NCBI RefSeq assembly: GCF_003790525.1
Contig: NZ_CP033635.1
Source: Escherichia coli
GTDB taxonomy: Bacteria > Pseudomonadota > Gammaproteobacteria > Enterobacterales > Enterobacteriaceae
DNA: 64,000 bases
Reading direction: 5' to 3' (one strand)
In this document: piece after piece, positions 2,147-40,291 of the stretch
How the letters are laid out: every line of letters starts with the position of its first letter
How positions within the stretch are numbered: the first letter of the stretch is position 1
Program-made: the position numbers and the translations under genes
The notes under the pieces: model-generated
The model's database searches: none
What the model was told of the DNA's origin: nothing
What the model saw: the letters and a program-made list of their open reading frames with translations, nothing else

Positions 2147-3685
2147 TTATTGCAAATCTGCGTCTTCAAAGCTGAAGCCGGTGTCTGGCATGATCCAAAA
2201 ACCGGTCAGGTTTTTACTGTGTGCCGACACCAGTTTTTCTACCACCAGCGGGATCCACGGCGACTCTTGCCAGATGATATCCTGCGCCGCCTTATATAAA
2301 CGGGTCTTTTCCGCCGGATCATTAGTTTTTAGTGCCTGAGCCAGGAAGTCATCCACCTGTTTATTGCTGTAAAACGCGGTATTAAACAGCGTTGGTGGCC
2401 AGTTTTGCGAGGCAAACAGCGGCGATAGTGCCCAGTCAGCTTCGCCGGTTGAAGCCGACCAGCCAGTGTAGAACATCCGCACGCCGCTCTCTTTTTGCCC
2501 TTTACCTTCGACTTCTGCCGCCCGCTGTCCGGCATCCATCGCAGTCACCTGGGCTTTAATCCCGACCTGCGCTAACTGCTGCTGGGTAAATTGCAGCACT
2601 TTCTGCGCGGTGCTGTGGTTATGTGACGACCACAGCGTGGTACTGAAACCGTTGGGATATCCCGCCTCTTTCAGTAATTCGCGCGCTTTCACTGGATCGT
2701 AAGGCCACGGTTTATAACTTTGCGCATAGGCGATACTCGGCGGTACCACACCAGTAGCTGGCGTTGCATAGCCCGCGAAGGCCACTTTCACCAGCGCCGG
2801 GCGGTTAATGGCGTAATTCAGCGCCTCACGGACCTTCGGGTTATCGAACGGCTTTTGCGTCACGTTCATACTGATATAACGCTGCATAATTGACGGACTG
2901 GCCATCAACTCGATATTTTTGTTTTTCTCCAGCAATGCGGCCTGCTCGTAAGGAATGGGGAAAGCAAACTGCGCTTCACCGGTTTGTAGCATTGCCGCGC
3001 GGGTGTTGTTATCCGCAACCGGACGCCAGGTTATGCTGTCCAGTTTGGGCAATCCTGGCTGCCAGTAACCCGCGAATTTTTTCACCTTCACAAAATCGGT
3101 CTGATTCCAGGTATCCAGTTCATACGGCCCGGTTCCCACCGGATGAAAACCAATATCCTTGCCATATTTTTCCAGCGCTGCCGGCGAAATCATCGCGGTC
3201 GCCGGATGGGCAAGAATATTAATAAACGCTGAGAACGGCTGTTTGAGGGTAATCTTTACCGTTGTTGGATCGATCGCTTCCGTTTTGGCAATATTCTTAT
3301 ACAGGTTGTAGCGTTTAAGATGATTCGCCGGATCGCTGGCCCGGTCCAGATTCGCTTTTACCGCCGCTGCGTTGAAGTCGGTTCCATCCTGGAATTTAAT
3401 TCCTTCCCGCAGTTTCACGGTGTAAGTAAGGCCGTCATCGGAAACGGTATAACTCTCCGCCAGCACGTTTTTCAGTTTCATCTCTTTATCCAGACCGAAC
3501 AGCCCCTGGTAAAACGATTTCGCTACGGCCTGAGATAACGTGTCATTCGCGTCATATGGATCGAGCGTGGTGAAGTTCGATCCTACCGCCACCACCACAT
3601 CTTTGGCAGCGAATGCACAAGATGCCATCAACGCTGTCGCAATGCCCAGCGCCACTAACCCACTACGGTGTACAGCTCTTGCCAT
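2147..3685 (-). CDS. gsiB: glutathione-binding periplasmic protein GsiB
   Basis: ORF 2147..3952 trimmed to internal Met 90 ([26 protein letters not shown] signal peptide), giving 512 aa; the longer ORF is an in-frame extension that would overlap gsiA. Confidence 0.9.
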
Positions 3686-36552: not shown

Positions 36553-36900
36553 GAAATCGTCTTGACACGTTTCTGGGCTCGTCATCAGCGGTTGTTGCGA
36601 ATGATCGCCGCCCTGCGATGGTTGATTTATTTTATTGCGCCCCGGCGTCTGCCTTGCCAGGTACCGGAGGCGGGCTCTGAAGGACTGAGTAGGGTGAGCG
36701 CGTCAGGCCGCGAAGTACTGACACGGGAGTTTGTGGCAGGCAGTGAAGTCCTGACCAGGGTAAGGGAGGCGCTGACGTGCAGGTCCTGACTGTCAGCCAG
36801 GCGCATGGTGACTGACTTTCTCAATAACCCGCTGTCAGGCGCTCAACGCCCGACAGCAGGCCATGGCCCGGTGTGCAAAGACCTGACGGCAGGTGTTGTG

Positions 36901-37221
36901 TCACCCGGAGAAGGTAAATCCCTCAAGAGGCAGCAGCTCAGCCAGTCGGTCCTCAGGCCACTCCGGCAGGCGCGTCAGTACGTCCGTCAGCCAGGCATGT
37001 GGCTCCAGACCATTACGCTTTGCTGTTTCCAGAAGACTCATTATCTGTGCCGCGCGTTTGCCGGCCATCAGCGAGCCTGCGAATAACCATGCCTTTCGCC
37101 CCAGCGTGACCGGGCGGATGGCTCGTTCGCAGATATTGTTGTCCGGTGGCACAGAGCCATCATCCAGAAAACGGCACAGCTCATCAGGTCGTTTCAGGAT
37201 ATAGCTGATAGCCTTATGCAA
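36901..37221 (-). pseudogene. IS66-family transposase C-terminal fragment
   Basis: NNICERAIRPVTLGRKAWLFAGS...LLETAKRNGLEPHAWLTDVLTRLPEWP matches the conserved IS66 TnpC C-terminal region; N-terminal two-thirds missing. Confidence 0.65.
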
Positions 37222-37694
37222 TGGACTGTCTGGCGGACCGCCTGCTCCTGCTCTTGACGGTTTTTTGCCTTGTATATCAGGTTATAGACGAGAAGATTGT
37301 CGTCTTCGTGGTTTCCGTCAGGAAAAGAGAATGCTCAAAAGTGTATAGTAAGGCGGTCAAACGCATTCGCTGAAATAAGATGTGTCACTTCAGCTTTGCG
37401 TTAACACGACTATTTTTCATCACTCAAGCGGTAGTCCCGGTGACTCACACGTATACGAGTCACCGCTTCAGATTTGAGTATCCGAATTTAAATCAGGGAC
37501 ACAATGGAAGAAGCGAACACTTTCGCATCCTCTTCCTGCAATTCGCAGACTGTCACTCTGCGTCCAGTTCCCTCTTTCCTCAGCAGGTACCAACGCCAGG
37601 CTCCCGACAAAGGTTGACCTGAAACGACCAAATACACAGGAAACAAAATACTGTCAGACAGAACGAGGCGTGCTATACATCACGCCTCAATGCT

Positions 37695-38684
37695 TCAGTG
37701 GCTGATTTTTTTCAGCTGTTCTTCACTCAATCCCGTGATTTTCATGATGGTCTGAAGCCCCATTCCTTCAGCCAACATATTACGCGCCGTTTCCAGTTTG
37801 CCTTCCAGTTGTCCTTCGAGTCGCCCTTCGGCACGGCCTTCCATTCTGCCTTCCATTCTGCCTTCTAGCTTACCGCGCTCCATACCCTGGGCAATACCGC
37901 GCTCAAATCCCTTGACTTCCCCTTCCTGCTTCAGTTGTTCAGCCAGTGTCATTATGTTGCCCTCATGCTGTGGCAGCCGCTCCGCCAGCGTCTGCAAAAA
38001 CCTTACCGTCACATGTTCACTGCCGTTCAGCAGATAGTGGAACAGAGCCTTCGCCAGCTCTTCATTCAGTGAAGTCTGTATCAGCTGAACCAGCCTGTCC
38101 ATCTGCAGCATGATGTCGCGGCTGCGGCTGTGTTTCATCAGCAGCGTCAGTGCCCCCATTCGGCGGTGTTGCATTATCTCATCGTCATCCAGTACCGTCA
38201 CGTCCACCAGGTGGAACGGTCTGGTGTAGATTTTAGCAGCAAGTTCCGGATTTCTGAAACACTCCAGCCAGTTCATGCTGTACGGGTACGGGCTCCGCTC
38301 ACCGTGGTAGAATAACAGCGGGATCACCAGCGGCAGCTCATGGTGCTGTTCAAAGTGACGCTGCATCGCCGCCACCGCATATCTGAGCATCCTGAACGCC
38401 ATAAACGCGTTTTCCGTACTCTGGTGTTCCGCGAGGCAATAAATATACCCCTCCTCACCGCTGACGGTCTTCATGCTGAACAGCGCATCGCACGCATACT
38501 GTTTCAGATCCTGGTCCACAAAGGTACAGGGCTCCAGCCGCAGCGTCGACAGATCACACAACTGCCGGTATTCCGCCGGAAGATGCAGTTCAACAAAATC
38601 ACGGGCCACCTCTGCTGAGGCCATAAACGCCCTGAAGGCGGCATCATGCGGCGTGGGCGTATTTTTCTCTTTCCTGCTGCTCAC
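37695..38684 (-). CDS. Rpn-family (YhgA-like) recombination-promoting nuclease / PD-(D/E)XK putative transposase
   Basis: 329-aa ORF with characteristic Rpn N-terminus (HDAAFRAFMASAEVARDFVELHLP) and C-terminal EGR(M/A/L) tetrapeptide repeats. Confidence 0.7.
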   Translation of the reverse strand: MSSRKEKNTPTPHDAAFRAFMASAEVARDFVELHLPAEYRQLCDLSTLRLEPCTFVDQDLKQYACDALFSMKTVSGEEGYIYCLAEHQSTENAFMAFRMLRYAVAAMQRHFEQHHELPLVIPLLFYHGERSPYPYSMNWLECFRNPELAAKIYTRPFHLVDVTVLDDDEIMQHRRMGALTLLMKHSRSRDIMLQMDRLVQLIQTSLNEELAKALFHYLLNGSEHVTVRFLQTLAERLPQHEGNIMTLAEQLKQEGEVKGFERGIAQGMERGKLEGRMEGRMEGRAEGRLEGQLEGKLETARNMLAEGMGLQTIMKITGLSEEQLKKISH

Positions 38685-38918
38685 TGTTTATCTCTTCTGA
38701 ACCAGGTAACATTAACAGAACATGTTTCAGGATATCCGCGCAGTGCGGAACATTACGGCTCACCACTGTGACGGCGGATCATCGCCACCCAGTATCCGAC
38801 AGACCCCTTACTTTGTTCGTAAACATCCTTCCTGCCCCCCTGAATCTCCAGACAACCAATATCACTTAAATAAGTGATAGTCTTAATACTAGTTTTTAGA
38901 CTAGTCATTGGAGAACAG

Positions 38919-39284
38919 ATGATTGATGTCTTAGGGCCGGAGAAACGCAGACGGCGTACCACACAGGAAAAGATCGCAATTGTTCAGCAGAGTTTTGAAC
39001 CGGGAATGACGGTCTCCCTTGTAGCCCGGCAACACGGTGTGGCAGCCAGCCAGCTATTTCTCTGGCGCAAGCAATACCAGGAGGGAAGTCTTACTGCTGT
39101 GGCCGCAGGAGAACAGGTCGTTCCTGCCTCTGAACTTGCTGCTGCCATGAAGCAGATTAAAGAACTCCAGCGCCTGCTCGGCAAAAAAACGATGGAAAAT
39201 GAACTCCTCAAAGAAGCCGTTGAATATGGACGGGCAAAAAAGTGGATAGCGCACGCGCCCTTATTGCCCGGGGATGGGGAGTAA
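38919..39284 (+). CDS. insC: IS2 transposase OrfA (InsC)
   Basis: [56 protein letters not shown]...; ORF-track ORF trimmed to Met 16. Confidence 0.9.
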
Positions 39285-40147
39285 GCTTAGTCAGCCGTTG
39301 TCTCCGGGTGTCGCGTGCGCAGTTGCACGTCATTCTCAGACGAACCGATGACTGGATGGATGGCCGCCGCAGTCGTCACACTGATGATACGGATGTGCTT
39401 CTCCGTATACACCATGTTATCGGAGAGCTGCCCACGTATGGTTATCGTCGGGTATGGGCGCTGCTTCGCAGACAGGCAGAACTTGATGGTATGCCTGCGA
39501 TCAATGCCAAACGTGTTTACCGGATCATGCGCCAGAATGCGCTGTTGCTTGAGCGAAAACCTGCTGTACCGCCATCGAAACGGGCACATACAGGCAGAGT
39601 GGCTGTGAAAGAAAGTAATCAGCGATGGTGCTCTGACGGGTTCGAGTTCCGCTGTGATAACGGAGAAAAACTGCGAGTCACGTTCGCGCTGGACTGCTGT
39701 GACCGTGAGGCACTGCACTGGGCGGTCACTACGGGCGGCTTCAACAGTGAAACAGTACAGGACGTCATGCCAGGAGCGGTGGAACGCCGCTTCGGCAACG
39801 ATCTTCCGGCGTCTCCAGTAGAGTGGCTGACGGATAATGGTTCATGCTACCGGGCTAATGAAACACGGCAGTTTGCCCGGATGTTGGGGCTTGAACCGAA
39901 GAGCACGGCGGTGCGGAGTCCGGAGAGTAACGGCATAGCAGAGAGCTTCGTGAAAACGATAAAGCGTGACTACATCAGTATCATGCCTAAACCAGACGGG
40001 TTAACGGCAGCAAAGAACCTTGCAGAGGCGTTCGAGCATTATAACGAATGGCATCCGCATAGTGCACTGGGTTATCGCTCGCCACGGGAATATCTGCGGC
40101 AGCAGGCCAGTAATGGGTTAAGTGATAACAGGTGTCTGGAAATATAG
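39242..40147 (+). CDS. insD: IS2 transposase OrfB (InsD), DDE catalytic subunit
   Basis: 301-aa ORF overlapping insC in the -1 frame, as in IS3-family frameshift arrangement. Confidence 0.9.
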
Positions 40148-40291
40148 GGGCAAATCCACCTGAATCTGAGGCAGCACCTGGCACGGCTGGGACGGAAGTC
40201 GCTGTCGTTTTCAAAATCGGTGGAGCTGCATGACAAAGTCATCAGGCATTATCTGAACATAAAACACTATCAATAAGTTGGAGTCATTACC

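Follow-up and report, generated by a model that had tools for sequence, protein, structure and literature searches.

The 12-bp tandem repeats within an rpn-like gene of this stretch of Escherichia coli DNA (the window, 64,000 nucleotides in all, by whose positions features are given here) correspond, with a probability that we put at about 85%, to the published hypervariable four-amino-acid repeat of the RpnL/RpnS helix, the number of which sets toxin–antitoxin pairing. The assignment draws on the observed anatomy of the tract, the homology of its gene, the fold similarity of the domain that contains it and its copy-number polymorphism, recent changes included. The feature is already known: it is an ordinary example of the published RpnS/RpnL repeat and adds no new biology.

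In each of the five rpn genes of E. coli K-12 (5/5), transcription and translation both also start within the gene, and a small C-terminal protein, RpnS, is produced in this way (PMC10327210); this protein is the antitoxin to RpnL, the toxic full-length nuclease (Zhong et al., PNAS 2023; PMC10400941 / PMC10327210). For RpnA, the internal start is M244 and the ribosome-binding site (RBS) lies in codons K240/E241, both of which have been proven by mutation (PMC10327210). The repeats of RpnS are described as units of four residues, one hydrophobic and the others charged or glycine, that start 8–20 residues past the internal Met and belong to helix 1 (PMC10327210); the number of repeats in helix 1 tunes the pairing of RpnL toxin with RpnS antitoxin in an antiphage system (Zhong et al., PNAS 2023). 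A search of the literature for subsequent studies of the RpnS/RpnL repeats yields only the 2023 paper and its commentary. The tract in the window agrees with the published description in its start offset (8 residues), in its units (L/M/A-E-G-R/K/Q), in its location within the predicted helix 1 and in its variable number.

The rpnL gene and its predicted internal antitoxin

The 329-aa protein that contains the tract is a member of the Rpn family, as illustrated by its matches to PF04754 (Transposase_31, YhgA-like; E = 6.5e-74, 248.3 bits versus a cutoff of 21) and to TIGR01784 (Rpn family recombination-promoting nuclease; 175.7 bits versus a cutoff of 52.1). Pairwise alignment with K-12 RpnA gives 44% identity (E = 4e-97) and places the RpnA residues D11, D63, E82, Q84 and R94, which are needed according to mutational data (PMC5350276), opposite D14, D66, E86, Q88 and R98 of the window protein. 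The PDDEI motif is identical in all K-12 paralogs; the corresponding region reads LDDDEI in the window protein versus MPDDEI in RpnA, with the DDEI acidic cluster retained and the proline replaced by aspartate. Since the equivalog models NF007361 and NF007418 (RpnA / PRK09956) each score the window protein at ~303 bits versus a cutoff of 583, it is an Rpn paralog that is neither RpnA nor PRK09956 and, judged by its sequence scores, a distinct accessory member of the family that is not the equivalog of any K-12 Rpn protein.

The gene is carried on an E. coli chromosomal island that is found mostly in poultry-associated strains. On one side of rpnL are sitA, a truncated sitB, an IS66 fragment and a RelE/StbE fragment, and on the other are a copy of IS2, hypothetical genes, a YagK/YfjJ (inovirus Gp2-like) gene, a GTPase and a DUF932 gene, the gene content on the IS2 side being typical of CP4-like cryptic elements. 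This island setting, adjoining IS2, IS66 and RelE fragments, distinguishes the window gene from RpnA–E and the plasmid-borne RpnP2. The IS2 copy is located upstream of rpnL, some 150–170 bp from its start codon, and might disturb rpnL transcription. Within the 64-kb window, no second rpn copy (tblastn) and no tRNA were found, and a PADLOC scan of the Rpn gene and four neighbours, with a library that is without an Rpn model, returned 0 matches. Relatives in a plasmid collection show at most 91% identity and none of them reaches the repeat end, so that, on present data, the window allele is a chromosomal one.

At the start of the region encoding its C-terminal domain, the gene has what, by its sequence, is an internal in-frame start with an RBS. 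M245 (ATG at 37952) aligns with RpnA M244, and the position of the RBS is common to both genes, with AAGGAG in K240/E241 of RpnA and GAGGG in E241–G242 of the window gene. The Shine-Dalgarno core GAGG and the internal ATG do not vary among six alleles, the most distant of which have about 84% DNA identity (alignment A1). Furthermore, the internal Met is kept within an (L/I)MT(I/L)A motif in 113 homologs, these being cluster representatives that extend down to 51% identity. The first repeat unit, at residue 253, is 8 residues past M245. Consensus scanning also finds two sigma-70-like sites inside the gene (Table 1), a number that is not above background (2 versus 1.1 ± 1.2 expected in shuffles).

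Table 1. Positions of the rpnL gene, of the repeat tract and of predicted elements within the window.
Feature	Position	Strand	Details or basis
rpnL, 329-aa Rpn (YhgA-like) PD-(D/E)XK nuclease ORF, GTG start, stop codon included	37695..38684	−	ORF list and Pfam/NCBIfam
Transposase_31 / PD-(D/E)XK nuclease domain, residues 11–207	38064..38654	−	Pfam envelope and RpnA alignment
Two sigma-70-like sites, candidate internal rpnS promoter	38258..38230 and 38201..38173	−	Consensus scan alone
GAGGG, Shine-Dalgarno-like, 7 nt upstream of the internal ATG, within codons E241–G242	37960..37964	−	Sequence
Predicted rpnS, in-frame internal ORF from M245 to stop, 85 aa, putative intragenic antitoxin	37695..37952	−	Alignment to RpnA
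Full 4-aa (12-bp) periodic tract, 11 xxGx units, residues 253–296, in predicted helix 1	37797..37928	−	
Youngest core, 2.5 perfect dodecamers	37836..37865	−	+ strand GCCTTCCATTCT, − strand GAAGGCAGAATG; codes for two RMEG/GRME units
Conserved helices 2 and 3 of the RpnS domain, RpnL residues 310–327, helix-turn-helix-like, invariant TGL motif	37704..37757	−	AlphaFold2 model, 7TH0 match
Terminator-like hairpin, 9-bp stem, directly 3' of the stop codon	37664..37689	−	Consensus scan alone

Anatomy of the tract and fold of predicted RpnS

The minus-strand ORF at 37695..38684 encodes a protein that includes GKLEGRMEGRMEGRAEGRLEGQLEGKLE and, in a fuller quotation, ERGKLEGRMEGRMEGRAEGRLEGQLEGKLETARN, within which a glycine is found at each fourth residue through 11 units (residues 253–296). 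In register, the units are QEGE VKGF ERGI AQGM ERGK LEGR MEGR MEGR AEGR LEGQ LEGK. At the DNA level, Tandem Repeats Finder calls a perfect period-12 array of 2.5 copies at 37836–37865, where the plus strand reads gccttccattctgccttccattctgccttc, and a diverged one of 3.2 copies with 81% matches at 37791–37829. The perfect copies are central in the tract and are flanked by units of growing divergence.

The 12-bp periodicity of the tract is well above chance. Its lag-12 identity is 0.575, in comparison with 0.316 ± 0.042 for codon shuffles, none of which (0/20,000) was as high. In fact, the best 132-nt stretch by this measure (start 37791, 0.617) is the maximum within the 64-kb window, for which the mean is 0.27 (SD 0.046) and the runner-up 0.425. 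An earlier note on this DNA had described tandem 12-bp repeats within an Rpn-family gene, a description that is borne out by the sequence, by Tandem Repeats Finder, by the PF04754 and TIGR01784 matches and by the shuffles, and the EGR(M/A/L) tetrapeptide array that it quoted (GKLEGRMEGRMEGRAEGRLEGQLEGKLE) is exactly what is encoded. Repeats are indeed present in the interval 37790-37880, which it gave as the extent of the array, yet the array is longer, with 11 units over 37797–37928.

The tract falls within a predicted three-helix domain. An AlphaFold2 model of the predicted RpnS, calculated as a monomer from a 37-sequence alignment (A2), contains a long helix at residues 3–61 and short helices at residues 66–73 and 77–83. 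The mean pLDDT is 68, with values of 82–85 for the C-terminal part and low values (52–62) for the repeat helix. Foldseek comparison of the model with the PDB gives as top match the crystal structure of RpnA-S (7TH0), with an rmsd of 0.6 Å over 38 columns, a target-normalised TM score of 0.79 and 47% identity, and a phmmer search independently of the model pairs residues 288–327 with the same entry (7th0_A, E = 0.0062). With moderate confidence, the predicted RpnS may be described as a three-helix domain with a long first helix, like RpnA-S. A match of Pfam HTH_7 to residues 296–327 is below threshold (17.8 versus 23.8 bits) and is consistent with the helix-turn-helix-like character reported for RpnS.

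A soluble helix in which each fourth residue is a glycine, and in which the number of units varies between organisms, is also known from the GxxxG repeats of FliH/YscL (Trost & Moore 2009, PMC2674601) and from the deca-GX3 motifs of Yae1/Lto1 (PMC4523923), with a suggested role in helix–helix association in both cases. NCBIfam FliH models do weakly match residues 243–306 of the window protein (E = 1.5e-7), with a best score of 30.9 bits versus a cutoff of 192. Homology to FliH was rejected on the basis of this score, of coverage that is confined to the repeat and of the missing flanking alanines of the AxxxG(xxxG)m xxxA pattern, the tract being flanked by L251 and T299, neither of which is an alanine; the FliH matches are a compositional and pattern resemblance, not homology.

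Copy number among isolates and homologs

Among E. coli alleles of >95% identity, tracts of 7, 10, 11 and 15 units are found. The locus is identical to the window in the complete E. coli genomes LH50-c, GF60 and CM2, and AR_0085 has a tract of the same length in which the first four units are of a different version. In 23CRST013 the tract is 48 bp shorter (7 units), and in Br_112_kylling it has four extra perfect dodecamers (+48 bp), giving 6 × GRME and 15 units. Outside the repeat, Br_112_kylling shows 0 substitutions relative to the window in 3171 + 2311 bp (about 5.4 kb), which makes its copy-number change younger than any point substitution there; the only differences are the additional 48 bp and a 1-nt change of an A run (A7→A6) near the stop codon. 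The part that differs between isolates is the perfect core, of which there are 1, 2 or 6 copies.

Allele frequencies were estimated by exact look-ups in a collection of 15 billion proteins, in which a perfect full-length match is required and variants are consequently undercounted. As a lower bound, the window protein (11 units) is found on 329 contigs, with a further 125 on which it is annotated from M21, and the 7-unit allele is found on 341 contigs. A version with 1 × GRME (10 units, 325 aa, EFU9184202.1), otherwise identical to the window protein, is found on one contig. Exact look-up in this collection returned neither the window protein with 0 or 3–8 × GRME nor the Br_112_kylling protein. 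Most isolates carry one of two stable alleles, of 11 or 7 units.

The variation among more distant relatives takes the same form. The distance from the internal Met to the TGL motif is a multiple of 4 residues in 113/113 of the homologs and falls into 10 length classes, the shortest of 36 and the longest of 72 residues, the window with its 11 units being at the maximum among these cluster representatives. All gaps among the homologs in alignment A2 fall within helix 1, as does the whole of the 36-residue gap (9 units) in the alignment with RpnA. Copy-number variability among isolates, as anticipated in the earlier note, is therefore real, and the identical repeat number that it named as a refutation is found neither among homologs nor among isolates. 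Of the length-variable C-termini that it foresaw, the variable length is confirmed; the variable part is an internal helix, and the last ~33 residues are conserved. Its interpretation is supported but incomplete, in that the gene-within-gene antitoxin RpnS, which holds the tract, was overlooked.

These observations also bear on three other explanations of the repeats. An in-frame microsatellite that is neutral, i.e. a tolerated low-complexity linker in a variable nuclease tail that drifts by slippage with no functional effect, would fit the small number of perfect copies (just 2.5), the dominance of two length alleles in the population and the steps of 4 residues, by which a 12-bp repeat necessarily varies. 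We consider it improbable, because even diverged units, in lineages down to 51% identity, have a glycine in third place and a hydrophobic residue in first, which indicates constraint, and because the tract is predicted to be helical and continuous with the conserved RpnS fold. Furthermore, a single unit matters in a homolog: addition of one KGIE unit to RpnC-S or RpnC-L alone abolishes neutralisation, and addition to both restores it, so that one added unit alters toxin–antitoxin compatibility (PMC10327210).

Simple-sequence-repeat contingency loci of bacterial pathogens likewise have tandem repeats in coding regions, the copy number of which shifts by slippage-type events, and a tandem repeat in a defence-type gene on a mobile island might suggest a phase-variable locus of this kind, at which slippage frequently switches the gene or the antitoxin between on and off states among the cells of a clone. 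This is very unlikely here. The 12-bp unit is frame-neutral, so that all changes are in frame and would have a graded structural effect rather than an on/off one, and in none of the observed alleles does the repeat cause a frameshift. The run of perfect copies is short, and the alleles are stable, identical ones being found on hundreds of contigs; the dominance of two alleles at such numbers indicates that copy change is an occasional event and not a high-frequency switch.

Least credible of all is that the copy-number differences are artefacts of repeat mis-assembly or sequencing, for although the A7→A6 change of Br_112_kylling near the stop codon resembles a homopolymer error and some partial proteins of the cluster stop within the tract, at contig breaks, the tract is at most 180 bp and its perfect part at most 78 bp, under normal read length, each of the four lengths was obtained in a separate assembly and one recurs on 341 contigs, every indel is a whole multiple of 12 bp and falls where one unit meets the next, and the pattern of 4-residue steps recurs in the 113 cluster representatives.

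Proposed toxin–antitoxin pairing and probable origin of new units

The favoured reading, that the tract is the published RpnL/RpnS repeat, brings with it a mechanism, most of which is carried over from characterised relatives. The full-length RpnL (329 aa) would be a toxic PD-(D/E)XK DNA endonuclease, with the Mg-dependent, nonspecific activity and the toxicity upon overexpression that go with membership of the Rpn nucleases, and RpnS, predicted at 85 aa, would be made in the same frame from M245 and would fold into the three-helix domain, with the 11 xxGx units lengthening its long first helix. Helix 1 would be, as in RpnA, the dimerisation interface by which RpnS binds and blocks RpnL. In an alpha-helix, four residues correspond to a rise of about 6 Å and a net rotation of 40°. 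The gain or loss of a unit would accordingly displace the helix by about 6 Å and about 40° and re-register the interface. Since the same codons specify both toxin and antitoxin, the two would change together and stay matched to each other, and a changed repeat number would produce a mismatch with the products of other Rpn alleles or paralogs, or with a phage factor, should there be one. Because the change is a joint one, repeat variation would be tolerated and could insulate co-resident paralogs from one another or allow escape from a phage factor. For the window gene, RpnS translation, toxicity, neutralisation, repeat-number specificity and phage defence are to be expected by homology to RpnA, RpnC and RpnP2, the last of which is protective against T-even phages (PMC10327210).

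The resemblance to the characterised RpnL/RpnS systems (RpnA–E and the plasmid-borne RpnP2) extends to the Pfam family, the catalytic residues, the position of the internal Met and of the Shine-Dalgarno sequence and the three-helix C-terminal domain, as well as to 4-aa repeats in helix 1 that begin 8 residues past the internal Met and vary in number between strains of a species. RpnA is itself without repeats, in comparison with 11 units in the window allele and 15 in its sister allele. A parallel outside the family is provided by the TAEL repeats of the HsdS specificity subunits of the type I restriction enzymes EcoR124I and EcoR124II, in which a helix sets the spacing of two DNA-recognition domains, with recognition of a 6- versus a 7-bp gap (PMC10327210). 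There, too, a 12-bp, 4-residue in-frame repeat occupies an alpha-helical spacer of a defence protein, and the gain of one unit changes specificity, not expression. The two are not homologous, however, and the window tract is proposed to set the register between a toxin and an antitoxin protein.

As for the origin of the units, the central position of the perfect copies, the diverged flanks and the location of isolate variation within the perfect copies suggest that units are gained or lost where perfect dodecamers adjoin, through slippage during replication or through unequal recombination, and that new ones would then decay by point mutation. Slipped-strand mispairing, which the earlier note had invoked, is plausible, as the perfect adjacent 12-mers are the very ones that vary.

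It is also conceivable, if unlikely, that the tract is a self-diversifying specificity module, in which the RpnL nuclease provokes the gain and loss of its own dodecamers and thereby re-keys the toxin–antitoxin interface. RpnL would in that case act as a nonspecific double-strand cutter that promotes RecA-independent recombination, and re-keying would be much faster than by point mutation. The change of +4 units with zero substitutions in about 5.4 kb is compatible with self-diversification and is no proof of it, and the same can be said of the −1-unit variant, in which the protein is otherwise identical. A secondary idea under this reading is that, since GGAAGG-CAGA-ATG is present in each GRME unit, expansions would introduce weak nested starts, from which shorter RpnS isoforms could arise.

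For the gene itself, the value of the published RpnL/RpnS reading is mainly one of annotation, in that the gene would be annotated as two proteins, a toxin RpnL and an antitoxin RpnS, rather than as a "putative transposase", and its repeat number is best treated as a specificity allele. Beyond this, the only added value is a clean natural series of alleles, with 7, 10, 11 and 15 units and with the 11- and 15-unit alleles on otherwise identical DNA, on which repeat-number specificity and the mechanism of expansion may be tested. The series is ready material for two questions that were left open by Zhong et al., namely how the dodecamers expand and contract and how large a mismatch, in units, toxin–antitoxin pairing tolerates.

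Mosaic structure of the repeat tract

Gain and loss of units is not the only process that appears to have shaped the repeat tract of the rpn gene. The first four units (window 37881–37928) read QEGEVKGFERGIAQGM in the window versus QSGREEGIALGMAQGM in both strain AR_0085 and the homolog P0001, the two alleles being equal in length. As the QSGREEGIALGMAQGM version is also common to more distant Rpn lineages (P0002–P0005, 77–83% identity), the alignments suggest that recombination or gene conversion among rpn paralogs has contributed as well.

On the coding strand, each GRME unit (within window 37833–37868) reads GGAAGG-CAGA-ATG, which places a Shine-Dalgarno-like purine run 4 nt ahead of an in-frame ATG. 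An array with more GRME units would consequently carry more potential weak internal starts, the function of which is doubtful because of the short spacing between the purine run and the ATG. Some partial Rpn proteins from public assemblies (cluster members P0130 and P0131) stop within the tract (...GRMEGR, ...LEGQLEGK), indicating that contigs sometimes break at this point; longer arrays could be masked in short-read assemblies.

Termini and domain assignment of the Rpn protein

The RefSeq start of the LH50-c gene, which is identical to that of the window, is placed at M21 (window 38624; 12930 in the LH50-c locus, L004), giving a product of 309/310 aa. In AR_0085 the RefSeq start is a GTG that yields 329 aa (equivalent to window 38684 and L004 12990). 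The M21 start removes D14, which aligns with D11 of the E. coli K-12 paralog RpnA, a residue required for RpnA activity (PMC5350276); on the strength of this alignment, the 329-aa GTG start is the more likely of the two.

At the opposite end of the gene, Br_112_kylling carries a run of six A residues versus seven (L001 ~3000–3025, corresponding to window ~37700–37715), which replaces the protein tail KKISH* with KKSATEALRRDV*. The shortened run could represent either a homopolymer sequencing error or a genuine change to the RpnS/RpnL C-terminus.

The precomputed annotations of the Rpn homologs list PF27070.1, which may be a model of the C-terminal (RpnS) domain, in addition to PF04754, but a Pfam search with a local copy did not report PF27070.1 for the window protein. 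Either this model is newer than the Pfam copy used, or its score was lowered by the long repeat insert.

Mobile elements around rpn

The fragments that separate sitB′ from rpn adjoin the Rpn module and are leftovers of older elements of the mobile or toxin–antitoxin kind. Searches of Pfam and PADLOC gave no match for three further island ORFs, the equivalents of which in related genomes are labelled either as hypothetical or as 'UCP030791 family putative phage-derived protein'.

Features flanking the rpn gene in the window
Feature	Window position	Strand	Remarks
IS66-family transposase fragment and RelE/StbE toxin fragment	36900–37650		Between sitB′ and rpn; annotation of matching RefSeq loci
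IS2, complete copy	~38836–40158		orfA from 38874; orfB 39242–40147
ORF, 259 aa	40474–41253	−	Island
ORF, 200 aa	41513–42115	−	Island
ORF, 407 aa	44723–45946	−	Island

The complete IS2 lies upstream of rpn, about 150–170 bp from its start codon, and in LH50-c its place is taken by a frameshifted gene encoding a UvrD-helicase domain (L004 13059–15966). The IS2 copy could have severed or replaced the rpnL promoter, leaving the putative internal rpnS promoter intact. If it affects the rpnL promoter alone, the toxin:antitoxin ratio would shift.
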